NCBI RefSeq assembly: GCF_020852195.1
Contig: NZ_JADZBI010000137.1
Span: 3,433 to 67,432, forward strand
Length of the DNA: 64,000 nt
Direction of reading: 5' to 3'
Source: Hyphomicrobium sp.
GTDB taxonomy: Bacteria; Pseudomonadota; Alphaproteobacteria; Rhizobiales; Hyphomicrobiaceae
Shown here one piece after another: positions 962 through 58,939 of the stretch; within the stretch, counting starts at the first letter, position 1; each line of letters opens with the position of its first letter. The notes beneath the pieces were generated by a model. It had not been told where the DNA came from. It was given only the letters and a program-made list of their open reading frames with translations, and did not search any database. A program made the position numbers and the translations under genes.

Positions 962-2650
962 ATGCTGATCAAGTTCACCGGCGGAACCGTTTACGACCCC
1001 TTGAACGGGGTCAACGGCGAGGTGCGGGACATCTATGCCAAGGACGGGCGCATCGTGGCGACGCCGGCGCCCGGCACGCGTATCGACGCCGAGTATGCGC
1101 TCAACGGCCGCGTGGTGATGGCGGGCGCCATCGACCCGCACAGCCACATCGGCGGCGGCAAGGTTACGATCGGGCGCATGCTGCTGCCGGAGGACCACCA
1201 GGGCCACGAGGTGGCGCGCACCGAGCTTCTGCGCTCGGGCTGCGGGCACGCCGTGCCCTCCACCATGACCACGGGCTACCGCTACGCGGAGATGGGCTAC
1301 ACGGCGGCGTTCGAGCCCGCCATGCTGCCGGCCAACGCGCGCCAGGCGCACCTCGAGATGGGCGACACGCCCATGATCGACAAGGGCGCGTTCGTGATGC
1401 TCGGCAACGACGACTTTTTCCTGCGTGCGCTCTCGCAAAAGAAAGACTTCTCGTTCATCAAGGACTACATCGCCTGGACCATGCACGCGGCGCAGGCGCT
1501 GGCGGTCAAGATCGTGAACCCGGGCGGCATCAGCGCCTTCAAGTTCAACCAGCGCCAGCTCGATCTCGACGAGAGGCACGAGTTCTACGGACTTACGCCC
1601 CGCGACATCATCCTCACGCTCGCGCGCGGCATGAAGGAGCTCGGCGTTCCGCACCCGATCCATATCCACGGCTGCAACCTCGGCGTTCCGGGCAGCATGT
1701 ATTCGACGCTGGCGACGATCAGGGCCGCGGAAGGGTTGCCGCTCCATCTCACACACATCCAGTTCCATAGCTACGGCACGGAAGGGGACATGAAGTTCTC
1801 GTCCGGCGCGCCGCAGATCGCGGAGCTTCTGAACCAGACCCCCAACGTGTCGATCGACATCGGCCAGATCATGTTCGGGCAGACCTGCACCGCTTCCGGC
1901 GACAGCATGCGCCAGTACGGCAACACGAAGTCCGCCAACCCCAAGAAGTGGGTGGTGATGGACATCGAGTGCGACAACGGCTGCGGCGTGGTGCCGATGA
2001 AGTATCGCGACAAGAGCTACGTCAACGCGCTGCAGTGGGCGATCGGGCTCGAGCTGTTCCTGCTGGTGCGCGACCCGTGGCGGATCTTCCTCACCACGGA
2101 CCATCCGAACGGAGCGCCGTTCTACTTCTATCCGCACCTCATCCGGCTGCTCATGGACCGCACGTTCCGCAACGAGATGCTGGAGAAGCTGCATCCGGCG
2201 GCGCAGGCAGCGACCATCCTCAAGTCGCTCGACCGCGAGTACACGCTCTACGACATCGCCATCATGACGCGCGCGGGCCCGGCGAAGAGCCTGGGGCTTC
2301 GCGACCGCGGGCATCTCGGCACGGGCGCCATCGCCGATATCACGGTCTACGAGGACAACGCCGACCGGGAGGCGATGTTCAAGACGCCGCTGTTCGTGTT
2401 CAAGAGTGGCGAGATGATCGTCAAGAACGGCCGCGTGGTGAAGGTGGTCGCGGGCGCGACGCACGTGGCCCGGCCCGACTACGATCCGGGCATCGAGAAG
2501 TCGCTGCGCGAGTATTTCGACCGCTACCACACGGTGAAGCTCGACAACTTTCGCGTCTCCGACCAGGAGATCGTGGACAGCAACTGCGGCCATACCGGCG
2601 GAGAATGCGGCTGCGTGATCGTGCAGCCGTGCGGACCGAGGACCTCCTGA
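962..2650 (+). CDS. fhcA: Formyltransferase/hydrolase complex subunit A (amidohydrolase fold)
   Basis: ATG at 962 gives MLIKFTGGTVYDP. Contains AGAIDPHSHIGGG, HLTHIQFHSYG, LTTDHPNG and ALQWAIGLE. The ORF-track extension to 395 is spurious. Confidence 0.95.
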   Translation: MLIKFTGGTVYDPLNGVNGEVRDIYAKDGRIVATPAPGTRIDAEYALNGRVVMAGAIDPHSHIGGGKVTIGRMLLPEDHQGHEVARTELLRSGCGHAVPSTMTTGYRYAEMGYTAAFEPAMLPANARQAHLEMGDTPMIDKGAFVMLGNDDFFLRALSQKKDFSFIKDYIAWTMHAAQALAVKIVNPGGISAFKFNQRQLDLDERHEFYGLTPRDIILTLARGMKELGVPHPIHIHGCNLGVPGSMYSTLATIRAAEGLPLHLTHIQFHSYGTEGDMKFSSGAPQIAELLNQTPNVSIDIGQIMFGQTCTASGDSMRQYGNTKSANPKKWVVMDIECDNGCGVVPMKYRDKSYVNALQWAIGLELFLLVRDPWRIFLTTDHPNGAPFYFYPHLIRLLMDRTFRNEMLEKLHPAAQAATILKSLDREYTLYDIAIMTRAGPAKSLGLRDRGHLGTGAIADITVYEDNADREAMFKTPLFVFKSGEMIVKNGRVVKVVAGATHVARPDYDPGIEKSLREYFDRYHTVKLDNFRVSDQEIVDSNCGHTGGECGCVIVQPCGPRTS

Positions 2651-2652
2651 CC

Positions 2653-3561
2653 ATGAGCGCCACGACCATCAACGGCGTCGTCATAGACGACACTTTCGCC
2701 GAGGCGTTCGGCATGAGCGGGCTCGGCCTCGTGATCACCGCCGACACGCTCAAGTGGGCGCGTATCTCGGCCGAGGTCATGACCGGGTTCGGCACGTCAG
2801 TCATCGGCTGCGGCGCCGAGTGCGGCATCGACCGCGAGCTCAAGCCCGACGAGACGCCCGACGGGCGGCCCGGCGTGCGCGTGCTCATCTTCGGCTTCTC
2901 GCCGGATGCGCTGAAGCCGCAGCTCGTCAACCGCGTCGGCCAGTGCGTGCTGACCAGCCCGGGATCGGCATGCTACAATGGCCTCGACAGCCCAACCACG
3001 CTGGCGCTCGCGGCCGGTCCGCGCTTCTTCGGCGACGGCTGGCAGACGGCGAAGAAGCTCGGCAAGCGGCGCTTCTGGCGCGTCCCCGTGATGGACGGCG
3101 AGTTCGTCATCGAGGACACGTGCGGCGTCACCACGGATGCGGTCGGCGGCGGCAACCTGCTCGTGCTCGGGCGTGACCGTGCCGGGCTGCTCGAGGCGAC
3201 GGAGGCCGCGGTCGACGCCATCGCCAAGATTGACGACGTAATCACGCCGTTTCCCGGCGGCATCGTGCGCTCTGGATCGAAGGTCGGCTCCAAGTACAAG
3301 GGCGCCATCGCCTCCACCAACGACGCTTTCTGCCCGACGCTCAAGGGTGCAGTGAAAACCGAGTGCAGCCCGGATACAATCGCCGTGCTCGAGATCGTCA
3401 TCGACGGTCTCACCTCCAAGTCCGTTGCCGACGCCATGCGCGTCGGACTCAAGACGCTGATCGAGACCGGCGCAGCGAAGGGCGTGACGCGGGTCTCCGC
3501 CGGCAACTACGGCGGCAAGCTCGGCCAGCACCACTATTACCTCAAGGATCTGCTGCCATGA
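2653..3561 (+). CDS. fhcD: Formylmethanofuran-tetrahydromethanopterin formyltransferase
   Basis: Contains INGVVIDDTFAEAF, TSVIGCGAECGID, TPDGRPG and VSAGNYGGKLG, typical of Ftr/FhcD. Confidence 0.95.
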   Translation: MSATTINGVVIDDTFAEAFGMSGLGLVITADTLKWARISAEVMTGFGTSVIGCGAECGIDRELKPDETPDGRPGVRVLIFGFSPDALKPQLVNRVGQCVLTSPGSACYNGLDSPTTLALAAGPRFFGDGWQTAKKLGKRRFWRVPVMDGEFVIEDTCGVTTDAVGGGNLLVLGRDRAGLLEATEAAVDAIAKIDDVITPFPGGIVRSGSKVGSKYKGAIASTNDAFCPTLKGAVKTECSPDTIAVLEIVIDGLTSKSVADAMRVGLKTLIETGAAKGVTRVSAGNYGGKLGQHHYYLKDLLP

Positions 3562-4367
3562 GCACGCTGAGCTTCACCCTGCGCGCCGCGCCGACCCAGG
3601 TGCTCGACCTCTCCGCACTGATCCCGAGCAAGCTCGCGGGGCTTTCGACAGGCGGCATCGAAAGACTGCCGCTCGGCGCTGATCCGCACGTGCCGCACGT
3701 GGGCGACGTGTTCGCGGTCAGCGGGGCGCCGGGCGAGGCCGTCGCCATATTGGGCGGCTCGCCGTTGCTCGATTACGTGGGCGCCGGGCTCGATGCCGGC
3801 TCGATCACGGTCGAGGGGCCGGTCGGCGCCTATGCCGGGCGCGGCATGAGAGGCGGCGAGATCACGATCGGTGGCGACGCCGGCGCCTACCTCGCCTCGA
3901 CGGCGAAGGGCGGCCTCATTCACGTCAAGGGCTCGGCCGGCGATTTCCTCGGCGGCGCGCGGCCCGGCGACAAGTTCGGCCAGCTCGGCGGCACGGTGCT
4001 GGTCGACGGCAGCGTCGGCGAGCGGGCGGGCGAACGCATGCGGCGCGGCATCGTGGTGGCAAAGGGCAAGTTCGGCGCGGCGGCGGGCTCGCGCATGGTG
4101 GGCGGACCGCTCTGGACCGAAGCCGGCTTCGGGCCGCGGCCCGGTCCCCTGCTCCGGCGCGGCACGCTGATCGGGCCGTCCGTCGACGAGCTGCTGCCGA
4201 CGTTCGCCGACTGCGGGCGCATCGATCCCGTGATCCTGCGCATCCTCTCGCGCTATATTGCGGACGTGCTGGGGCCGCTCGCGCCCAAGGCGCTGCCGGG
4301 GGCCGTGCGCAAGCTCGCCGGCGACCAGGCCACCATCGGCAAGGGCGAGATTCTGCTGACGGCATAG
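3558..4367 (+). CDS. fhcC: Formyltransferase/hydrolase complex subunit C (FwdC-like)
   Basis: ATGA overlap with the fhcD stop. Gly-rich beta-helix repeats (GAYAGRGMRGG, GERMRRG). Confidence 0.93.
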   Translation: MSTLSFTLRAAPTQVLDLSALIPSKLAGLSTGGIERLPLGADPHVPHVGDVFAVSGAPGEAVAILGGSPLLDYVGAGLDAGSITVEGPVGAYAGRGMRGGEITIGGDAGAYLASTAKGGLIHVKGSAGDFLGGARPGDKFGQLGGTVLVDGSVGERAGERMRRGIVVAKGKFGAAAGSRMVGGPLWTEAGFGPRPGPLLRRGTLIGPSVDELLPTFADCGRIDPVILRILSRYIADVLGPLAPKALPGAVRKLAGDQATIGKGEILLTA

Positions 4368-4784: not shown

Positions 4785-5582
4785 CTATTGCGTCGCCGCT
4801 TCGGGCGGGATGGCACGCGAGGAGCCGTGCTCCTTCACGACCTGCCGCGCTTCCTTGACGGGCGGAAGCTTGCCGCTGATCTCGATCATGAACTTCTGGC
4901 GGATGGCGCGGCCGAAATCGTTGAAGCCATGTGCGGGAAGGATGAAGCTGCCAGGTCCACCCATCACGTTGTCGCGGTACCACTGCTCGAGTGCCGGTCC
5001 CTCATCGCCCTCGAGAATCGGCAGGCCGTTGATGGTCACGCCGGCGGCCGCGAGTTCGTCGCGCACGACGGCGGTCGCCTCCTCGGGGTTGCAGTTCTCG
5101 CGGCCGTCACCCGAGACGTCGACGACGATACGCAGCGCCCTAGCCGGGATCTGCGGCACCACCTTGTCCGAGATCGAGCGCATCATGCCCGAGACGCACG
5201 TGAACTCTCCCGTTTGCCGCGGCAGAGCGCGCACCTTGGACGCCAGGTACGCCGCGTCGGAAGGGTTTGCAATGCGCTGCCACGGCAGCGCGAGGCGTGG
5301 CTTGTCGGCCCAGGTCACCATGGCCACGAGGATGCTGCCGTTGGGACCGTTCAGGATCGCCTTCAAGACCTCCGGATCCTCCAGCGCCTTGGCGATGCCC
5401 TCCATCTGCAGCCGGTAGCGGTGCTCGTCGACGGAGTTCGAGACGTCCACCGAAACGATGAGCGCCGTGTCGACATCCCCCTGCTGCTCCTGCGCATGGG
5501 TGATGCCGGCCAGCGCCAGGACTGCTGCCATCGCCGCGGCCACAACCCGGCTCCATACGCCGCCCGAATGGCATGACCTCAT
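4785..5582 (-). CDS. DUF1194 (vWA-like) secreted protein; start may be 5531
   Basis: Signal peptide followed by LIVSVDVSNSVD (MIDAS-like DxSxS), VVDVSGDG, VTINGLPI and VMGGPGSF. Confidence 0.85.
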   Translation of the reverse strand: MRSCHSGGVWSRVVAAAMAAVLALAGITHAQEQQGDVDTALIVSVDVSNSVDEHRYRLQMEGIAKALEDPEVLKAILNGPNGSILVAMVTWADKPRLALPWQRIANPSDAAYLASKVRALPRQTGEFTCVSGMMRSISDKVVPQIPARALRIVVDVSGDGRENCNPEEATAVVRDELAAAGVTINGLPILEGDEGPALEQWYRDNVMGGPGSFILPAHGFNDFGRAIRQKFMIEISGKLPPVKEARQVVKEHGSSRAIPPEAATQ

Positions 5583-5767
5583 GTTCTTTGTTCTCTTCTG
5601 CTCAGATCACCGTCGCGCAATCTTAACCCTGCATCGCGTCCTGCCGCCAGTGGACTGTGGCCCAACGGGCACGAAGCCCGCCCCATGCTTTTGCGTCACG
5701 GCTTGCCAACGCGGCCGGCGGCGCTTACCGTCGCCGCGCCCGATGTCGGGGACCGAGGACTTTGCCC

Positions 5768-6151
5768 TTGCCAACGCGTGCCGCCGTCAACCTGATCCTG
5801 CTCGCCGTGCTGGCTCTGCGCAGCCTGCTGCCGGCTGGCTATATGGTGCAGGCGGCGGATGCGTCCAAGGGCTCGTTCGAGATCGTGATCTGTACGAGCA
5901 CGGGCCAGAAGCTCGTGAGCCTCGACGGTGATGGGACCGCGCCGGCCTCCAAGCCACAGCACGTCGAGAGCGGGCTTTGCCCGTTCGCCGCCGCCGGAGC
6001 GGCAGCGCTCGCCGCTGCGGCGCCGGAAAGCCTCGCCACCGCGGCCGAGTATGCCGCCGTCACCTACCCGCGGGCGGTCGCGCTCTTTGCCGAGACACCG
6101 AAACCCGGGGCCCAATCGGCCCGTGGTCCACCAACCTCCGCGTTGATCTGA
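5768..6151 (+). CDS. DUF2946 family protein
   Basis: TTG start after GAGGAC. Contains LLPAGYM, IVICT, CPF and the C-terminal ARGPP motif. Lies directly upstream of a TonB receptor. Confidence 0.75.
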   Translation: MPTRAAVNLILLAVLALRSLLPAGYMVQAADASKGSFEIVICTSTGQKLVSLDGDGTAPASKPQHVESGLCPFAAAGAAALAAAAPESLATAAEYAAVTYPRAVALFAETPKPGAQSARGPPTSALI

Positions 6152-6241
6152 GTCCGCTCGTCATCAGTGGCCGTGCGTCGCGTTCCGTCGATGGAAGCGC
6201 ACGCCTGCCGCCCGCTTCAGATTCAATACGGATCCTCCGCC

Positions 6242-8530
6242 ATGTCATCTTGCTTGCGGCCGCAGGGCTCGACCCGGCCAACGCTTATCCGCCAGTACGG
6301 CGTTCCTTCCGCGCTCTCAGTCGCCATCCTCTCCGTTGCGCTCGGCGCGCCCTCATCGGCGCAGGAGGCCGTCACCGAGCTTCCCGAGGTGACCGTCACG
6401 ACGACGGCGCCAACGGGCAAGCCGAAGGCCAAGGCGGCAAAGTCCGCTCCGGCCGCGATCGCCCAGCAGCCGAGCAGCGCCGAAGCCGAGGCGCCGTCGG
6501 ACGGCAGCGACCACCCGCAATTCGGCGCCCGCTCGGGCAGCCTCGGCGTGCCGACGGTCGCCGAGGCGACGGTCGAAATTGAGCGCACGCCGGGCGGCGT
6601 CGATCTCGTTCCGGCCGAGGAGTACAAGACTTCCACGCCGGCCGTCACCCTGAAGGACGCGCTCGACTATGTGCCGGGCGTGCTCGTGCAGCCCAAGTGG
6701 GGCGAGGATTCCCGGCTCTCCATCCGCGGGTCGGGGCTCTCGCGCAACTTCCACGGCCGCGGCGTCCTGCTCCTGATCGACGGCATCATCCCGCTCTCGA
6801 CGGCCGATGGCGCAAGCGACTTCCAGGAGATCGACCCGACAGCGTTCCGCTACATCGAGGTCTACAAGGGTGGCAACGCGCTTCGCTACGGCGCCAACAC
6901 GCTCGGCGGCGCGCTCAACTTCGTCATGCCGACCGGCTACGATTCCGACCTGTTCGGAGCGCGAGTCGATGTGGGCAGCTTCGGCTTCCACAAGCTCTCG
7001 GCCAGCTCGGGCGGCGTCTTCGGCGCGGCGGACTACTTCATCACCGGCACCTGGCAGGAGCAGGACGGGTTCAGGGATCACTCCGAAGGCGAGAGCACGC
7101 GCGGGGCCATGAACGTCGGCTACCGGCTGACACCCGATGTCGAGACGCGCTTCTACCTCAGCGCCGCGCACATCCGCCAGGACATCCCGGGCGCCGTGAC
7201 GAAGCAGCAGGCGCTTTCGAACCCGGAGGGCGCATTCGTGCTGCCGGGAGAGCCGTCGCTCCCGTTCTTCCCGTTCAGCACGGGCAACGATAACGTCGAC
7301 CGCGACTTCGAGCGCAACATCGATGCGGTACGCGTCGCCAACAGGACGACCGTCCGCCTCGCGCCGGGGACCGTCGCGGAGTTCGGGGCATTCTACCGGG
7401 ACAAGCAGCTCGACCATCCGATCCTGTTCGTGCTCGACAACGACACGCAGGAAAAGGGCGGCTTCGCCCGGATCGTCGACGACAGCAGGATCGGCGGCTT
7501 CCGCAACACGCTGGTCGCCGGCGTCAGCATCCACAACGGCGAGACGCGGTCGCGGTTCTATCGTAACATCCTCGGCGAGCGCGGCGCGCTCATGTCGGAT
7601 TCCGACCAGAAGTCCGACAATACGATCGTCTACGCCGAGAACTCGTTCTTCGTGCAGCCGACGGTGGCGCTGGTTGCCGGGCTGCAGTACGTCGACGCGG
7701 AACGCGCGGTCTCCGACAACTTCCTTTCCGACGGGAACTCCTCGGGCAAGGCGAGCTTCGATTTCTGGAACCCCAAGGCCGGCATCGCGTGGGACGTGAC
7801 GCCGTTCGCGCAGGTCTTCGCCAACGTGTCGCGCAGCGGCGAGGCGCCGACGTTCAGCGAAATCACGGTCACGCCGGCTCTCACCACCAGCCTCGACCCG
7901 CAGCGGGCGACGACCTACGAGATCGGAACGCGCGGATCCACACCTGACTTCAAGTGGGATCTCGCGCTCTATCGCTCCAACATCGACAACGAGTTCCAGT
8001 GCCTCACGGTCGGGTCGTCGCTCTGCAACCAGGTCAACGCGGACAAGACGATCCACCAGGGCGTCGAGCTCGGCGTGGGCGCGGCGCTCTGGTCGGGCAT
8101 CATCGAGACGGCGGGGCGGCTCGATCAGCTCTGGCTGAACGCGGCGTATACGTTCAGCGATTTCCGCTTCGACGATGATGCCGACTACGGGGACAACGAG
8201 CTGCCGGGCGCGCCCCGGCACTATCTGCGCGCCGAGCTCGTCTACAAGCATCCGTCCGGCGTTTTCTTCGGCCCCAACATCGAGTGGGTTCCGGAGGCGT
8301 ACTTCGTGGACAACGAGAACACGTTCAAGACGGACGCGTACGCGATATGGGGAGCCAGGATCGGCTACGAGGGCGAGACGTTCTCGGCCTACCTCGAAGG
8401 GCGCAACCTTTCCGACGAAGCCTACATCGCGTCGGCGAGCGTGTCGGGCGATCTCGGTGGCGCGGACGGCGCCGTGTTCGAGCCCGGCACCGGGCGCGCC
8501 ATCTACGGCGGCTTCCAGGTGAAATGGTGA
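6242..8530 (+). CDS. TonB-dependent receptor, probably for copper uptake; start 6167 or 6242
   Basis: Signal peptide, LPEVTVT TonB-box region, plug motifs (LSIRGSG, LLIDGI, IEVYKG) and a C-terminal aromatic end (YGGFQVKW). Confidence 0.9.
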   Translation: MSSCLRPQGSTRPTLIRQYGVPSALSVAILSVALGAPSSAQEAVTELPEVTVTTTAPTGKPKAKAAKSAPAAIAQQPSSAEAEAPSDGSDHPQFGARSGSLGVPTVAEATVEIERTPGGVDLVPAEEYKTSTPAVTLKDALDYVPGVLVQPKWGEDSRLSIRGSGLSRNFHGRGVLLLIDGIIPLSTADGASDFQEIDPTAFRYIEVYKGGNALRYGANTLGGALNFVMPTGYDSDLFGARVDVGSFGFHKLSASSGGVFGAADYFITGTWQEQDGFRDHSEGESTRGAMNVGYRLTPDVETRFYLSAAHIRQDIPGAVTKQQALSNPEGAFVLPGEPSLPFFPFSTGNDNVDRDFERNIDAVRVANRTTVRLAPGTVAEFGAFYRDKQLDHPILFVLDNDTQEKGGFARIVDDSRIGGFRNTLVAGVSIHNGETRSRFYRNILGERGALMSDSDQKSDNTIVYAENSFFVQPTVALVAGLQYVDAERAVSDNFLSDGNSSGKASFDFWNPKAGIAWDVTPFAQVFANVSRSGEAPTFSEITVTPALTTSLDPQRATTYEIGTRGSTPDFKWDLALYRSNIDNEFQCLTVGSSLCNQVNADKTIHQGVELGVGAALWSGIIETAGRLDQLWLNAAYTFSDFRFDDDADYGDNELPGAPRHYLRAELVYKHPSGVFFGPNIEWVPEAYFVDNENTFKTDAYAIWGARIGYEGETFSAYLEGRNLSDEAYIASASVSGDLGGADGAVFEPGTGRAIYGGFQVKW

Positions 8531-53746: not shown

Positions 53747-54694
53747 TCAAGCTTTAGATTTAATAAAATCTACTAATTCTGATGTAAAACTTTCTATTTC
53801 TTGCGTATCTAACCATTTCCAAGACATCATATTGCGCCGAAGCCACGTGAGTTGTCTTTTGGCGTACTGGCGCGTCTCGGCTTTTGCCGCCTCGGCCGCC
53901 TCGGCGGCGCTCATGCTGCCCGCGATCAGTCGTGCGAGGGGGGCAACGCCGAGTGCGCGCATCGCCGGCAGTGTGGGACCGAGGCCCTGCTCCAGGAGCG
54001 CCTCCACCTCGTCGAGGGCGCCATGCTCCATCATCAGATCGAAGCGGGCGTCGATGCGCCGGCGCAGCGCGTCGCGCTCGGGAGACACGACGACGGCGCG
54101 CCCCTGCTCAACGGTCACCACCGGCTCGCCCGGCCGCTCCTGCCAGCGCGCGAGTGAGGTGCCGGTCGCCTCCAGCACCTCGAGGGCGCGCACGAGACGC
54201 TGCGGATCGGTGGGCCTGAGGCGTGCTGCCATCTCGGAATCGCGCTCCGCGAGGACGGCGTGCAGCGCCGCGGCGCCCTCCTCGCTTGCGCGGCTGCGCC
54301 AACGGGTGCGAATCTCGTCGGGGATCGGCGGAATGGGTGACAGTCCGTCGGTCAGCGCCTTGAAGTAGAGTCCAGTGCCGCCAACGATGATGGGAATGCT
54401 GTCCGCGCGCGCTGCCGCAGCGATGGCCGCCCGCGCCTCCGCCGCATAACGCGCTGCGGAATACGCGTCCGCCGCGGGCACATGGCCGTAGAGACGATGA
54501 GGCACGCGTTGCTCGTCTGCCTCGCTCGGGCGTGCCGTCAGCACATGCAGCTCGCGGTAGACCTGCATGGCGTCCGCGTTGATCACGGTGCCGCCCATAC
54601 GCTCGGCGAGCGCAATCGCCAGCGCGGACTTGCCCGAGGCCGTCGGGCCTGCGATCAGTATGGGGGCATGCCCAGCCCTGTTCTCGCTCGCCAT
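53747..54694 (-). CDS. miaA: tRNA dimethylallyltransferase
   Basis: IAGPTASGKS, INADAMQVY, VGGTGLY, RALEV and TRQYAKRQLTW. Confidence 0.96.
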   Translation of the reverse strand: MASENRAGHAPILIAGPTASGKSALAIALAERMGGTVINADAMQVYRELHVLTARPSEADEQRVPHRLYGHVPAADAYSAARYAAEARAAIAAAARADSIPIIVGGTGLYFKALTDGLSPIPPIPDEIRTRWRSRASEEGAAALHAVLAERDSEMAARLRPTDPQRLVRALEVLEATGTSLARWQERPGEPVVTVEQGRAVVVSPERDALRRRIDARFDLMMEHGALDEVEALLEQGLGPTLPAMRALGVAPLARLIAGSMSAAEAAEAAKAETRQYAKRQLTWLRRNMMSWKWLDTQEIESFTSELVDFIKSKA

Positions 54695-54714
54695 CAGCGG
54701 ATCGACACCCATCT

Positions 54715-56181
54715 ATGTTCGGCAGCCATCTGCGTCGCAAAAGCCTCGTGATTTCCTATATCGCTTACAAGCGATGGTCGGTGCTCTTGTTTCAGTTTGT
54801 CCTGGGCCTAGTGGTCCTCGGCATTCTCTTCGGCCTAACACACGTGCTCACGAGCGGCGCCAAACCGTGGGCAGGTGTGTTGTACTTTACAGCCTTCTTT
54901 CTTGGAGCTGAGGATCTGGTGCCCGGCGCAATCAACTCGGGCTGGCTGGCACCCGTCGCTGGCCTAGCACGACTGATTACCCATTCGCTGATCCTGGGCG
55001 CCATCGTTTTCAAGATGTTCGTCCCCGACGACGTTCTAGACTTTCGAAAGCGTCTATTGATACGTCCTGGCGTTCATGGGTGGGAGGCGCTTGTTCGTCT
55101 GTACAATGCCACCGATACGGATTTTTTTGACCTGACAGCTACGGCGCTCTTGCGCGCGCCGACAACAAACGGCGTCGTACCATTCGTACGAAGCATTCAA
55201 GTTGATATTGCCCCTGAGCGCGCCAATTGGCCCCTTTCTCTTCCTTTCGTCCCTTACACCCTAAGCATCCCATTACAATCATGCGATATCTACTACGAGG
55301 GAAGCCAGCCCAGGCTGCGGGCGCTAGCGGGTAACCCTGTGTCTCAGGTTTCCAACGACGGGCCTGGTGAATGTTACCTCATCGTTGCGGTGAGGGGGTT
55401 CGCGCCGAGTCTTGCGACCGAATTCGTGCAGACCAAGTGGTACAAGCTGAGTGGCAACGATGCAGACTACGAGTTCGGAGATTTCTACGACGTGCTCGTT
55501 GCACCCGGCTCTACGCCTCGTCATGCGGGCGGCAATGCCAGACACTGGCCGGGCTGGGACAAGTTCGAGCACGCGCGTCCGATCGCGCCACCACGCGCCC
55601 GGCGTCACGTGATCTTCGGCTACGGATCGCTGGTCGACATCGGGCGGCTCAGCGAGTTCCTGCAATCGGAAGGGCTCAAGCTTGGCGCGCACGAATACGC
55701 GACGCTGCGCGGGTTCCGCCGTGCCTGGAGCGTCGCGATGGACAACCGCAAGGACCTGCCCGACTACAAGTATTATCTCGACGCGCAGAGCGATGCGCGG
55801 CCGGACGTATACGTTGCGTTTCTCAATATCGAGCATGCGGGGGAGAGCGAGCTTTCGGCTTACGCGGAGCCGCCGGAGGTAACCGGCGTGCTGTTCGAGA
55901 TCGATGAAGCCGCCCTCGCCATCCTCGACCGGCGCGAGCGCAATTATTGCCGGTGCGACATCAGCCGGTATTTCGCTGAGTTCGATGGACGCATATGGAC
56001 CTACCTCGGGAGCCCCGAGGCCGAGGAGCGGTTCCGGATCGGGCTCATCGAGGGCTCGGTGGTGATCGATGCGGGCTACAAGCGTGAGGTAGAAACGGCG
56101 TTCCGTGACGCGAACATCCGCTACTCGGCCTATCAGGACCCGCATCTCGGAGAGATGCACCTGAGACGCATTGCGACGTAG
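54715..56181 (+). CDS. Putative KirBac-like channel with a non-canonical filter, fused to a gamma-glutamylcyclotransferase (GGCT/ChaC-like) domain
   Basis: TM1, a pore-like segment and TM2, then G..VF.M..P....F.....RP......LVR..NA resembling the Kir cytoplasmic domain. C-terminal IFGYGSL, LRGFRR, VTGVLF, LDRRE and WTY are GGCT motifs. Confidence 0.6.
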   Translation: MFGSHLRRKSLVISYIAYKRWSVLLFQFVLGLVVLGILFGLTHVLTSGAKPWAGVLYFTAFFLGAEDLVPGAINSGWLAPVAGLARLITHSLILGAIVFKMFVPDDVLDFRKRLLIRPGVHGWEALVRLYNATDTDFFDLTATALLRAPTTNGVVPFVRSIQVDIAPERANWPLSLPFVPYTLSIPLQSCDIYYEGSQPRLRALAGNPVSQVSNDGPGECYLIVAVRGFAPSLATEFVQTKWYKLSGNDADYEFGDFYDVLVAPGSTPRHAGGNARHWPGWDKFEHARPIAPPRARRHVIFGYGSLVDIGRLSEFLQSEGLKLGAHEYATLRGFRRAWSVAMDNRKDLPDYKYYLDAQSDARPDVYVAFLNIEHAGESELSAYAEPPEVTGVLFEIDEAALAILDRRERNYCRCDISRYFAEFDGRIWTYLGSPEAEERFRIGLIEGSVVIDAGYKREVETAFRDANIRYSAYQDPHLGEMHLRRIAT

Positions 56182-56222
56182 CTTCCCGCTTACAGACTAG
56201 AAGAAACAGAAAAGACTACGCG

Positions 56223-57155
56223 ATGACCGCATCAACGACTTGCACGCTCCTGCTCACCGCAGCGCCGGGATCCGGCGTGGTCACCGAGTCGGTAACGCAG
56301 GCGGCGCTTGGCGCACTTGCCGGCACGGCGGCGGACGTGCAGTGGCTGTCCCCCGGCGATGCCTGGGAAGCGCGTTTCGACCTCGCGGGTGCAAGCAGCC
56401 TGGCCGCGCAGTGCGACGCCGTCGCCCAGGCCATCGGACCGACGCCGGTCGACGTCAACATCGTTGCCGGAGAGCCTGATGCCCGGCGCAAGCGGCTGCT
56501 CGTCGCGGACATGGAAAGCACGATCATCCAACAGGAGCTGATCGACGAGATCGCGGAGATCGTGGGGTGCCGCGCCGAGATCGCCGCCATCACCGAGTCC
56601 GCCATGCGGGGCGAGATCGACTTCGAAACCTCCCTCGCTCAGCGTGTGGCGCTGCTCGCTGGGATCGAGGCGCACCGGCTCGAGGCGATCCTCGCCGGCG
56701 TGACGCTCATGCCGGGGGCCGAGTCGCTGGTGGCGACCATGCGCGCGAACGGAGGATGGACGGCGCTGGTCTCGGGCGGGTTCACGATCTTCGCCGAGCG
56801 GATCGCCGCGCGGCTTGGCTTCGATGCCGTGGTCGCCAACGTGCTCGAGATCGAGGGCGGGCAGCTCACGGGCCGGGTGCGGGAACCGATCGTCGGGCCG
56901 CAAAGTAAGGCCAATACGCTGAAGCGGCTCGCGGCAGAGGGCGGACTTCCGCTTTCGGAGACACTGGCCGTCGGCGATGGCGCCAACGACGTTGCCATGC
57001 TCGCGGCGGCGGGGCTCGGCGTTGCGTTCCGCGCCAAGCCAATACTCGCGGAGCAGGCGCGCGCGTTGGATACCGGCGCGGTCGTCACGCATGGCGACCT
57101 CACGGCGCTCTTGCACCTGCAGGGCTACGGTCGCAACGATATCGTCGTGTGCTAG
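56223..57155 (+). CDS. serB: Phosphoserine phosphatase
   Basis: LVADMESTII (DxDST variant), AMRGEIDF, LVSGGF and AVGDGANDVAM. Confidence 0.93.
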   Translation: MTASTTCTLLLTAAPGSGVVTESVTQAALGALAGTAADVQWLSPGDAWEARFDLAGASSLAAQCDAVAQAIGPTPVDVNIVAGEPDARRKRLLVADMESTIIQQELIDEIAEIVGCRAEIAAITESAMRGEIDFETSLAQRVALLAGIEAHRLEAILAGVTLMPGAESLVATMRANGGWTALVSGGFTIFAERIAARLGFDAVVANVLEIEGGQLTGRVREPIVGPQSKANTLKRLAAEGGLPLSETLAVGDGANDVAMLAAAGLGVAFRAKPILAEQARALDTGAVVTHGDLTALLHLQGYGRNDIVVC

Positions 57156-57577
57156 ACCTGGACGCGCCAGAACTCCTCCGCTCCATCTGGCAAAGTGGAT
57201 AACACGCGGTCGAATGCAGGCTCGTCGACGTTCCTGCGCAAGGCGATGGCGACGTCACGAATGGCGCTGTCGGGTGCAAAGTTGTGGTCGCGACGCAGCG
57301 CCTGAGCCTCCCTTGTCATAGCAGCACGGTCGTCGAAGGGCCGCTGCGGCTGCTCCACATGCCAGTCATCGATGAAAAGTGCGCGGAGAAGGGGCGGCAG
57401 CGCGTTGGCGAACCGAATGGCGTCTCCCACGCCGAGGCGGCTGCGGAACATCTGAAAGACGCCCTGGACCATCGTGTAAACCTGATTGCGCGTCGCGAGG
57501 CCCGAGGCTTCGAGCGCGTCGTCCAGGAACTGCTCGAAGTCCTTCGCGGCCGTGCGGTACTCCATGGGTATGGTCAC
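57152..57577 (-). CDS. DUF2267 family protein
   Basis: VQGVF..FRSRL, FANALPPLLRALF..DW and VL..LPDGA..FW. Confidence 0.75.
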   Translation of the reverse strand: MTIPMEYRTAAKDFEQFLDDALEASGLATRNQVYTMVQGVFQMFRSRLGVGDAIRFANALPPLLRALFIDDWHVEQPQRPFDDRAAMTREAQALRRDHNFAPDSAIRDVAIALRRNVDEPAFDRVLSTLPDGAEEFWRVQV

Positions 57578-57611: not shown

Positions 57612-58277
57612 TCACGCGCGTCCGATCAGGCGACCGACGGCCAGCCGAAAACGCGACGCCGTCTCCTCGATGACCGGCCGCCATCGCGCCCACGCCCGCT
57701 TCGCCTCCAGGCGCACGCGCGTCTTCACCATGCGGCCGTAGCGCCAGGGCCACGACGCCCGGATGCTGGCAAACAGCGCCTCCTTCCACGGTATGATGAC
57801 GTTGTAGATGGCGGCGAACCAGCCGATCTGCATGAGCGCGGGCCGGGTCAGCAGGAAGATGCGGGCGATGAGCGCGGTGGAAGCGATCTTCGCGCCGACG
57901 AACAGCATGCCGGCTGCGAGTACCTGTCCTGCCGCGAGCAGATACAGCGCCAGGAACTTCAGCGGAAACAGGACCGAGGTCGGCAGCGCGAGCACGACCA
58001 GGGCGCCATAGGGCGGGAGCCGCGCGATCATCTGCTCGACACGCGCCCAGGGCGCGAAGCGGGCCAGATACGCGAGCGCCTCGACCAGCGGGCGCCAGCC
58101 CCATTCCTCGAACAGTAGGATGAGAGCCGCTACGACTTGCAGCGCAAAGCTCAGCGAGGCGCGGATAAGATGCCACAGCGCGCGCAGACCCAGCAGCGCA
58201 TGCACCACGACCCGGCGAAGGCGTGATCTCCCCTCCCGCCATGCGGCCTTGACGCCTTCGCGGAGCCGTCCCGACAT
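57612..58277 (-). CDS. Hypothetical integral membrane protein
   Basis: LILLFEEWGWRPL, LPPYGALVVLALP..VLFPLK and hydrophobic helices, with normal codon bias. Confidence 0.75.
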   Translation of the reverse strand: MSGRLREGVKAAWREGRSRLRRVVVHALLGLRALWHLIRASLSFALQVVAALILLFEEWGWRPLVEALAYLARFAPWARVEQMIARLPPYGALVVLALPTSVLFPLKFLALYLLAAGQVLAAGMLFVGAKIASTALIARIFLLTRPALMQIGWFAAIYNVIIPWKEALFASIRASWPWRYGRMVKTRVRLEAKRAWARWRPVIEETASRFRLAVGRLIGRA

Positions 58278-58486: not shown

Positions 58487-58939
58487 ATGATCTCACGTTT
58501 CGGGCTCGCGGCCGTCGCCGCTCTGCTGCTCGCTGCACCGTTCGCCGGCTCCGCCTCGGCCGAGGAGATCGAGGTGAAGATGCTGAACAACAACGGCAAG
58601 GGCAAGTTCATGCTGTTCGAGCCGGAGGTCATCAAGGCGAAGGTCGGCGACACCGTCAAGTTCATTCCGACCAATAAGGGCCACAACGCGGAGATGATCC
58701 CCGACCTGTGGCCCGAGGGCGCAGCCGAGTTCAAGGGCAAGCTCAACGAGGAGATCGTGCTCACGATCGAGAAGCCCGGCGTCTATGGAATCAAGTGCCT
58801 CCCGCATTATCCGATGGGCATGATCGCGCTCGTCGTCGCGGGCGACGAACTGCCCAACAAGGGCCAGCTCGATACCTACAAGCCGTCTGGCACGGCGCAG
58901 AAGCGCTACGATGCGCTCAAGGAGCAGGTCGGCCAGTAA
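58487..58939 (+). CDS. Pseudoazurin (type 1 blue copper protein)
   Basis: Signal peptide, VKMLN, FEP, GDTVKF, GHN (His ligand) and CLPHYPMGM (Cys, His, Met ligands). AAGGAGG RBS. Confidence 0.93.
   Translation: MISRFGLAAVAALLLAAPFAGSASAEEIEVKMLNNNGKGKFMLFEPEVIKAKVGDTVKFIPTNKGHNAEMIPDLWPEGAAEFKGKLNEEIVLTIEKPGVYGIKCLPHYPMGMIALVVAGDELPNKGQLDTYKPSGTAQKRYDALKEQVGQ

Follow-up and report, generated by a model that had tools for sequence, protein, structure and literature searches.

The KirBac channels (KirBac3.1 and KirBac1.1; TC 1.A.2) are built from a cytoplasmic N-terminus, the M1 helix, a pore helix, the M2 helix and a beta-rich domain, and this whole architecture recurs in the protein family described here. 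Further Kir-domain proteins, NirBac1.1 and NirBac1.2 of Anaeromyxobacter and NirBac2.1, were found by BLAST and are about 35% identical to KirBac1.1; NirBac1.1 and NirBac1.2, which are without TxGYG, still form tetramers and conduct monovalent cations non-selectively, and the P-loops of the NirBacs have no homology to one another (Zubcevic et al. 2015, PMC4607889). Among enzymes, the GGCT fold is represented by human GGCT (2rbh), ChaC and ChaC2 (5hwi, 6k95) and the GGACT/AIG2-like proteins (2jqv, 2g0q), and it is this fold that is common to the C-terminal module of the present protein. For the two folds joined as a Kir-GGCT architecture, no curated family or paper was found in Pfam, NCBIfam or the literature, in agreement with the original prediction, which had regarded the architecture as undescribed.

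The window, that is, the whole stretch of DNA analysed, comprises 64,000 nt of the Hyphomicrobium sp. contig NZ_JADZBI010000137.1, and all coordinates in Table 1 are positions within it. The ORF of 488 aa between the divergent miaA and serB was found exactly as it had been quoted. The start of the longest miaA ORF and that of the fusion gene are only 2 nt apart, and the homology of miaA begins at about residue 16. On the other side, no terminator-like site was found on the + strand in the gap between the fusion gene and serB, and the two genes are probably co-transcribed.

Table 1. Features of the fusion gene (P0001) and of its two neighbours, given as positions within the window.
Feature	Positions	Strand	Basis or remark
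miaA, divergent upstream neighbour	53747..54712	-	Pfam IPPT, 1e-76
Whole gene P0001	54715..56181	+	488 aa; Kir-fold module and GGCT-fold module
Basic cytoplasmic N-terminus and amphipathic helix at the Kir slide-helix position, aa 1-20	54715..54774	+	AF2 helix 2-18
M1 transmembrane helix, aa 21-47	54775..54855	+	AF2 helix 21-47; paired with KirBac M1 by hhalign
Pore helix, aa 51-63, PWAGVLYFTAFFL	54865..54903	+	AF2 helix 51-63; aligned to KirBac FFFSVQTLA
Pore loop, aa 64-77, GAEDLVPGAINSGW	54904..54945	+	K+ filter replaced; alignments
M2 helix, aa 78-102	54946..55020	+	AF2 helix 78-102; hhalign; conservation counts
Beta-rich Kir-type cytoplasmic domain, aa 106-260	55030..55494	+	Foldseek matches KirBac3.1, Kir2.2, Kir6.x; hhalign; conservation
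W278-x-G-W-x-x-F-[ED] motif	55546..55569	+	alignment of 39 members
GGCT-fold enzyme domain (putative), aa 298-488	55606..56178	+	AF2 pLDDT 95; Foldseek; Pfam; PDB profiles
FGYGSL substrate-pocket motif, aa 301-306	55615..55632	+	aligned to VFVYGS of AIG2-like structures
E408 codon, putative catalytic Glu in LDRRERNY	55936..55938	+	conservation and PDB alignment
serB, same-strand downstream neighbour	56223..57155	+	HAD; 41 nt past the fusion gene

Three independent lines of sequence and model comparison confirm that the N-terminal part of about 265 aa is a module of the Kir/KirBac fold, to which it is very distantly related. In its template-free, single-chain AF2 model (pLDDT 79, pTM 0.69), the predicted helices bear out the layout of TM1, pore-helix-like segment and TM2 that had been read from the letters, and a beta-rich domain follows them. 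When this model was searched with Foldseek, the best 50 matches listed were Kir-type channels, one of them labelled merely "a transmembrane protein"; those named include KirBac3.1, a Burkholderia KirBac, Kir2.2, Kir4.1 and Kir6.x, with E down to 8e-12. The best structural matches are KirBacs, with alignments of about 273 columns that take in essentially the whole KirBac chain and a target-normalised TM of 0.59-0.63, so that the Kir-type result expected of the structural search was obtained. Profile-profile comparison by hhalign of 39 family members with 20 genuine KirBacs (an alignment seeded by the single KirBac of a class-wide Pfam IRK search, 1 in 301 genomes) gave significant homology (probability 95.6%, E 1.2e-8) over 235 columns that start in M1 and run to where the cytoplasmic domain ends (residue 263 in P0001, residue 296 of 307 in KirBac). 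In addition, the HMM of the N-terminal module matches a genuine KirBac bearing TIGYG with E 3e-5. The earlier alignment to KirBac by eye stands in hhalign for M2, for the linker with RLYNA and for YLIVAVRG...TKWY, and fails for DFYDVL, which falls on a more C-terminal Y..F segment of KirBac.

The distance of this relationship is considerable: identity to Kir proteins is put at 12-16%, with 9-16% across the Foldseek alignments and 14% in hhalign, and Pfam IRK (PF01007) and IRK_C (PF17655), both of which are present in genuine KirBacs, match none of the 39 members even at E<=0.1. Nothing was found for the N-terminal module in a Pfam and NCBIfam scan of P0001, or in phmmer and hmmsearch searches of PDB sequences with P0001 or alignment A1 as the query. 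That is to say, direct sequence searches are blind to this homology, which is detected only by profile-profile and fold comparison.

The charges of P0001 obey the positive-inside rule, which predicts from the sequence that both ends of the protein are cytoplasmic. A conserved HPxxRxR motif marks the slide-helix region in alignments of relatives. In M2, G95 is kept in 34 of the 39 members and K/R100 in 37, and P104 lies just past the helix; this G-x4-K-x3-P spacing equals that of KirBac TGLVFAKFSKP. A conserved basic residue (R/K86) also lies inside M2, and it may count against the channel reading. In the cytoplasmic domain, R128-x-Y130-N131, R147, W172-P173 and P180 are near-invariant, and the strand motif R-x-[YA]-N is common to KirBac and the family. 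The most conserved element of the family is the tail WxGWxxF[ED], in which W281 and F284 are found in 39/39 members; in P0001 it stands on a short linker between the two modules, in the split versions it is situated near the C-terminal end of the N-terminal module, and it may act as the docking site for the GGCT partner.

Within the same module, conservation is lowest in the pore loop. The signature T-x-G-[YF]-G occurs in 0/39 members, and P0001 has FFLGAEDLVP in its place. GAE[DE]L is kept only in the close subfamily, and family-wide the loop is hypervariable, has a net acidic character and contains no common filter motif, a pattern that a non-conducting scaffold would give as well. The loss of TVGYG claimed in the original prediction is thus real, and its further claim of a shortened filter has little to support it: 14 residues separate the pore helix from M2, close to the 10-13 estimated from one KirBac sequence, and hhalign places the main deletion, of 7 residues, in the turret before the pore helix. 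From these alignments the filter appears rewritten and not deleted, replaced rather than clearly shortened.

The evidence supports the assignment of the C-terminal part of about 190 aa to the GGCT fold (AIG2/GGACT/ChaC-like), as a putative enzyme whose catalytic motifs are intact. The top Foldseek matches of the C-domain model were 2i5t, 2rbh, 3cry, 6ky1, 5hwi and 6k95, all with probability 1.0, and E ranged from 5e-6 to 7e-4 for human GGCT (2i5t, 2rbh), ChaC2 (6ky1) and yeast ChaC (5hwi); GGCT-fold matches had been expected here. Profile searches of the PDB gave the AIG2-like 2jqv and 2g0q. At E<=0.1, Pfam GGACT (PF06094) matches 24 members and ChaC (PF04752) matches 6; P0001 itself scores 18.1 bits with GGACT, of which the gathering score is 22.8, and the homologs L025 (28.1 bits for its ORF) and P0040 (25.8 bits) lie above it. 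GGCT, GGACT/AIG2 and ChaC are about equally close to the module. The motifs FGYGSL, VTGVLF and LDRRE, which had been named beforehand, are present and conserved. Among them, FGYGSL is invariant in alignments A1 and A4 and kept in 27-28 of the 29 fused members. E408 is kept in 28/29; its counterpart in the alignment is the Glu of IEGN/VEGN in 2jqv and 2g0q, which we regard as the catalytic residue of AIG2-like proteins. This retention of the putative catalytic Glu argues that catalysis, beyond mere binding, is under selection.

The family is sparse and spread across several phyla, with at least 25 fused cluster representatives. All three of the "standalone" Kir-like genes examined have a separate GGCT-like gene directly downstream of them (L063 with a 4-nt overlap, L066 with a 1-nt gap, and L062), and a further split pair occurs in a Bacillus MAG (L025). 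The search for the same architecture thus yielded both fused homologs and adjacent-gene pairs. Judged from these sequences, the Kir-fold and GGCT modules are shown to be evolutionary partners: many lineages have them fused, and in others they are encoded by separate genes that lie side by side, abut or overlap. This alternation of fusion and adjacency is "Rosetta stone" evidence for the Kir-fold pore protein and the gamma-glutamylcyclotransferase working as one unit. The enzyme module also has many standalone soluble homologs. Outside the alphaproteobacterial miaA-serB slot the gene neighbours are not conserved, so the genomic context offers no pathway clue; clustering of the neighbours of C-module genes found synteny only among distant actinobacterial and Solirubrobacterales standalone enzymes, and nothing on the fusion.

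Within the slot, the comparison of the miaA-serB interval proposed earlier showed the fusion gene to be absent from 9 related genomes, in which miaA directly adjoins serB. The same slot holds the unit in hosts whose MiaA proteins share just 50% identity, a sign of long vertical residence there. As regards composition, the N half of this copy has 56.8% GC (GC3 0.64) and the C half 63.6% (GC3 0.80), windows of 300 nt range from 51.7% to 66.7% GC, and GC3 steps near codon 270 from about 0.52-0.70 to 0.80-0.85. The contrast noticed earlier is therefore genuine and had been overstated, at 53-55% versus 65-72%. Its explanation as a horizontally acquired channel recently joined to a host-like enzyme is rejected, because the modules are partnered family-wide, the slot is shared at 50% MiaA identity and the orthologs are without the N/C contrast. 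Since this copy has the GC3 step and the trees of the N- and C-domains are discordant, replacement of a module within the family fits better than creation of the fusion. On one gain with losses versus several gains, the concatenated MiaA+SerB tree is poorly resolved.

With respect to function, it is tentatively proposed, at somewhat less than an even chance, that the protein is a tetrameric, gated, non-K+-selective channel-enzyme under the control of a cytoplasmic gamma-glutamyl compound. The protein would assemble as a tetramer around a gated pore without K+ selectivity, through which monovalent cations would probably pass in the manner of NirBac, and four GGCT domains would hang below the Kir ring on the cytoplasmic side. 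Gating would be coupled to the enzyme domain as it binds and turns over a cytoplasmic gamma-glutamyl compound, for which the candidates are glutathione itself, one of its conjugates or a gamma-glutamyl peptide. Gating by glutathione or gamma-glutamyl compounds is inferred by analogy, and the fully specified version, a Kir-fold non-selective cation channel that is gated by such a ligand and destroys it with its own GGCT domain, is unlikely to hold in every part.

Several other readings have to be weighed against this channel-enzyme. Conservation is strongest in the cytoplasmic domain, WxGWxxFE and the enzyme, the pore loop is hypervariable with no family-wide filter motif, the catalytic residues are kept and soluble standalone enzymes abound; all of this would also suit a membrane-tethered enzyme, in which a non-conducting Kir-like module serves as a tetramerising anchor or regulatory scaffold (sensing, for example, lipid or ions through the Kir cytoplasmic domain) and the gamma-glutamylcyclotransferase is the sole effector. 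However, M1, the pore helix and M2 with its Gly and Lys have persisted through wide divergence, although a plain anchor would need none of them, and net acidity is a consistent property of the loops, in keeping with a cation vestibule. NirBac channels, moreover, conduct despite unrelated P-loops (PMC4607889). Such a tethered enzyme is on balance rather doubtful. The lost narrow K+ filter and the fact that the pore module is obligately paired with an enzyme that cleaves gamma-glutamyl compounds could also be read as vectorial uptake, a literal "gamma-glutamyl cycle", in which the pore admits a gamma-glutamyl compound, small amine or peptide and GGCT cleavage makes the import irreversible. A RimK-like ATP-grasp ligase immediately downstream of the pair in the Bacillus MAG (L025) and a transglutaminase-like gene adjoining an alphaproteobacterial copy (L039) would agree with it, but each neighbour is seen at one locus only, the gene is not linked to any periplasmic gamma-glutamyltransferase or binding protein, and we know of no tetrameric P-loop pore that passes solutes of 250 Da or more; uptake of this kind is very unlikely.

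Pore-forming effectors are common in defence systems, and the gene is patchy in its genus (a full-length match in 4 of 25 genomes), with the compositional step and discordant domain trees of this copy pointing in the same direction; an anti-phage or stress suicide effector would depolarise the membrane through its pore and deplete glutathione with its enzyme domain on activation. Yet the PADLOC-DB protein models gave no match at E<=1, no plasmid or phage homologs of the fusion protein were found, no mobile-element or defence genes lie nearby, and the gene sits between housekeeping genes, probably co-transcribed with serB, in a slot whose sharing at 50% MiaA identity indicates long vertical residence. 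The defence role suggested in the original prediction is accordingly left without support, the defence or mobile-element reading is set aside, and a suicide effector is rated as highly improbable. An assembly chimera, or two genes misread as one ORF, could be suspected from the GC3 step near the module boundary of this copy and from the real split versions elsewhere. Against it, full-length homologs run collinearly through the junction in nine or more independent assemblies, fused ORFs of this kind are found in many assemblies, among them the single-contig genome G020 and several metagenomes, and the conserved WxGWxxFE at the junction is continuous with both halves; an artefact has a practically negligible chance.

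If the proposed channel-enzyme is correct, a prokaryotic protein would tie thiol and gamma-glutamyl metabolism to membrane potential or cation content, and with destruction of the ligand it would act as a transducer that resets itself and passes the thiol/gamma-glutamyl status of the cytoplasm on to membrane potential. The annotation of ChaC as a "cation transport regulator" is an old one, for which we know of no demonstrated mechanism. Control of cation flux by gamma-glutamyl or glutathione metabolism, if real, may explain this historical link, and the protein would be the first case known to us in which a ChaC-type enzyme is physically linked to cation transport; we know of no further Kir-type channel-enzyme in prokaryotes.

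Compared with KirBac, the family has no T-x-G-Y-G, carries the extra WxGWxxFE tail and has an obligatory GGCT-fold partner, fused or adjacent, and what is new is a deep, formerly unrecognised branch of the Kir superfamily, invisible to Pfam IRK/IRK_C, with a freely varying pore loop. The NirBacs, which likewise combine Kir architecture with a non-canonical, lineage-variable P-loop, are the best functional precedent for the pore module, and the family takes further what they had shown, namely that the filter can be exchanged wholesale on the Kir scaffold. However, it is far more divergent from KirBac than they are (9-16% versus about 35% identity), and they have no enzyme domain or partner. The C-terminal module of P0001 aligns with the YGS(L) pocket motif and Glu of AIG2-like structures, and differs from GGCT-fold enzymes in its family-specific motifs W-x-VAMDN, YKYY and FLNI, in a helical C-terminal extension of about 55 aa and in being tethered to a membrane pore module. 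KefC and KefB are conceptually alike, in that cation flux is controlled by glutathione or its adducts at a cytoplasmic domain, but this is analogy and not homology: Kef has a CPA2 antiporter-type membrane domain with KTN/RCK, folds unrelated to the Kir and GGCT folds of P0001, in which no Pfam or NCBIfam match to CPA2 or KTN/RCK domains was found, and the Kef transporter leaves its ligand intact. The present protein would thus offer glutathione-linked control of cation flux by a route unrelated to Kef. In TRPM2 (NUDT9-H) and TRPM6/7 (kinase), as proposed here, a tetrameric cation channel carries a C-terminal enzyme or enzyme-derived domain that senses metabolites; these are eukaryotic proteins of other channel and enzyme families, and the fused enzyme-derived domain of TRPM2, which is its ligand sensor, is analogous and not homologous to that of P0001.

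The N-terminal module of the window's fusion protein P0001 (N-module, about residues 1-265) is a deep branch of the Kir superfamily with an enzyme partner. It is covered by no Pfam or NCBIfam model: the sole Pfam match of P0001 is to GGACT, below threshold and within the C half, the N half being unmatched, and the NCBIfam, PADLOC and PDB sequence searches with P0001 gave no matches. Homology to Kir/KirBac is supported by three independent lines, namely structure, profile-profile comparison and HMM. In the template-free AF2 model (11 homologs; pLDDT 79, pTM 0.69), an N-terminal helix is followed by M1 (21-47), a short re-entrant helix (51-63), M2 (78-102) and a beta-rich domain. When this model was compared with the PDB by Foldseek, the top 50 entries included KirBac3.1, Burkholderia KirBac, Kir2.2, Kir4.1 and Kir6.x, as well as one labelled just "a transmembrane protein"; E values went down to 8e-12 at probability 1.0, the alignments of about 273 columns took in essentially the whole KirBac chain, and target-normalised TM values were 0.59-0.63. 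For the profile comparison, the relatives of a genome-derived genuine KirBac with TIGYG were gathered and 20 were aligned; hhalign of the 39-member family alignment against these 20 KirBacs gave a probability of 95.6% and E 1.2e-8 over 235 columns, which run from M1 through the whole cytoplasmic domain. In addition, an HMM built on the N-module alone matches a genuine TIGYG KirBac at E 3e-5. The registers drawn by eye in the original prediction for M2, the linker, RLYNA and YLIVAVRG...TKWY recur in the hhalign result, while DFYDVL is placed differently. The positive-inside rule places both ends of P0001 in the cytoplasm.

It had also been proposed that the K+ signature TVGYG is absent, apparently through shortening. 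The absence holds, with T-x-G-Y-G missing from all members of the 39-member alignment, but the shortening does not: 14 residues separate the pore helix from M2 in P0001, near the ~10-13 of KirBac as estimated from one TIGYG KirBac sequence, and the main deletion found by hhalign (7 residues) lies ahead of the pore helix, in the turret. Therefore, the filter has been rewritten rather than shortened. The loop FF[VL]GAE[DE]L is conserved in the close Hyphomicrobium subfamily, and family-wide the loop is hypervariable (LIDAPAPE, MFGM, LINPGDL and others), with G, D or N at position 64 in 34/39 members and more acidic than basic residues in most. In M2, G95 (34/39) and K/R100 (37/39) are conserved, and the P0001 spacing G-x4-K-x3-P is the same as in KirBac; the cytoplasmic domain is strongly conserved at R128-x-Y-N, R147, WP and P180.

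The C-terminal module (C-module, residues 298-488) is, judging from its model and motifs, a GGCT-fold enzyme with conserved putative catalytic residues. The AF2 model made from a C-domain alignment of window and locus DNA has pLDDT 95, and the PDB entries that match it best are human GGCT (2i5t, 2rbh, 3cry), ChaC2 (6ky1, 6k95) and yeast ChaC (5hwi, 5hwk), at E 5e-6 to 2e-3. The profile of that alignment matches the AIG2-like structures 2jqv and 2g0q at E ~1e-3, pairing FGYGSL with VFVYGS and LDxRErnY with the Glu motif IEGN/VEGN. The Pfam GGACT gathering score of 22.8 bits is exceeded by two homologs (28.1 and 25.8), P0001 scoring 18.1; at E<=0.1, 24 family members match GGACT and six match ChaC. 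Of the 29 fused members, 27-28 retain YGSL and E408, so selection appears to act on catalysis.

The two modules are obligate partners, present either fused or as adjacent genes. At E<=1e-3, 1219 proteins matched in an exhaustive HMM search, and the best 150 of these included at least 25 fused representatives, about 10 N-module-only proteins of ~290-330 aa and many standalone enzymes of ~190 aa. One fused protein, P0129 (707 aa), carries two tandem GGCT-like domains after the Kir-like module. Each of the three N-only genes looked up lies directly 5' of a separate same-strand GGACT-like gene. The motif W-x-G-W-x-x-F-[ED] is the most conserved of the family, W281 and F284 being present in 39/39 members, and the split N proteins terminate a few residues past it; this tail may dock the GGCT partner. 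KirBac is not known to have an equivalent.

Coordinates of features in the window and at loci of relatives
Feature	Place	Coordinates	Strand	Remarks
miaA	window	53747-54712	-	upstream of fusion ORF, divergent; Pfam IPPT, E 1e-76
miaA/fusion starts	window	54694-54717		start of longest miaA ORF 2 nt from fusion-gene ATG
Fusion ORF	window	54715-56181	+	488 aa
W-x-G-W-x-x-F-[ED]	window	55546-55569		aa 278-285
serB	window	56223-57155	+	41 nt downstream of fusion ORF; HAD
DUF2267 gene	window	57152-57577	-
Membrane protein gene	window	57612-58277	-	221 aa, predicted; no Pfam match
Cupredoxin-like gene	window	58487-58939	+	label assigned by synteny (Copper-bind genes at L004 and L068)
Split pair	L063	4001-4885 + 4882-5469	same strand	4-nt overlap
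Split pair	L066	4001-4879 + 4881-5510	same strand	adjacent genes
Split pair	L062	3242-4760	same strand	59-nt overlap; could be frameshifted fusion or real overlap
Standalone C-module-like gene	L010 (G009:C466)	1288-1839		183 aa; same-genus genome without fusion; E 7e-24 to C-module HMM
N-module ORFs and the genes that follow	L025 (Bacillus sp. MAG)	5495-7877		N-module in two ORFs, possibly disrupted or frameshifted
Transglutaminase-like gene	L039 (Alphaproteobacteria NORP118)	3286-3963		convergent to fusion gene

At L025, the N-module ORFs are followed by a separate GGACT-like C-module gene; next comes the gene of a RimK-like ATP-grasp ligase, with its start overlapping the stop of the GGACT gene. 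Epsilon-(gamma-glutamyl)lysine, the product of transglutaminases, is degraded by GGACT-type enzymes; the transglutaminase-like neighbour, seen at the one locus L039, may be there by coincidence.

In the window, the ORF lies between divergent miaA and serB exactly as first described. Its co-transcription with serB is plausible, since the + strand of the gap between them has no terminator-like site and a search of 54300-56500 gave no sigma-70-like promoter. MiaA homology starts at about residue 16 of the longest miaA ORF, so that, given the 2-nt gap, either coding sequence contains the divergent promoters or miaA truly starts further downstream. The 221-aa membrane protein gene sits between the DUF2267 and cupredoxin-like genes.

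Full-length matches occur in 4/25 same-genus genomes, the window's own included, and in 0/16 genomes of the order's other families. In nine genomes without the gene, two of them from other families, miaA and serB are immediate, divergent neighbours. Every alphaproteobacterial copy examined occupies the miaA-serB slot. Among these are split versions from hosts as far removed as other families of the order, their MiaA being ~50% identical to that of the window, and for this reason long residence with frequent loss is favoured over recent insertion; the MiaA+SerB tree is poorly resolved on this question.

The GC contrast between the halves exists, but it is smaller than the original prediction estimated: 56.8% GC with GC3 0.64 in the N half versus 63.6% with GC3 0.80 in the C half, neighbouring genes having GC3 of 0.76-0.93. 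GC3 rises near codon 270, from ~0.52-0.70 (54715-55530) to 0.80-0.85 (55531-56178); orthologs have no such N/C contrast. In the domain trees, the window's N-module clusters with that of P0008 (support 97/95), which fits host relatedness given the 75% identity between the hosts' MiaA proteins, and its C-module clusters with P0002-P0006, the P0001+P0008 C-module pairing being supported by zero bootstrap trees. The GC3 step and the discordant trees suggest intragenic recombination between family members, which could explain the composition contrast. The fusion itself did not arise through it.

As to function, a gated channel-enzyme is a tentative reading by analogy, at somewhat less than an even chance: a tetrameric, gated, non-K+-selective pore would bear four GGCT domains, which would bind and turn over a gamma-glutamyl compound of the cytoplasm, and gating would be coupled to this. 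Somewhat less likely is the next reading, in which the Kir-like module is a non-conducting scaffold for a membrane-tethered enzyme. NirBac, which are KirBac homologs with P-loops swapped for unrelated sequences that differ even among 66%-identical paralogs, nevertheless remain tetramers and non-selective conductors of monovalent cations (PMC4607889), so the variable loop is no evidence against conduction. A device for vectorial uptake and cleavage is improbable, and a defence effector, with zero plasmid, phage or PADLOC matches, still more so. An artefact is very unlikely, since fused orthologs are collinear in many independent assemblies, which argues against an assembly chimera. The rest of the probability belongs to something else.

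In PMC and bioRxiv, no paper combining KirBac with gamma-glutamylcyclotransferase was found, and such a fusion is described in none of the papers listed at the top of two looser searches. The nearest precedent there is NirBac, a direct published example of a replaced P-loop on a Kir scaffold, as in the N-module. The gating proposed for the fusion protein would be analogous to that of glutathione-gated Kef, and the proposed channel-enzyme to TRPM2 with its NUDT9-H domain.
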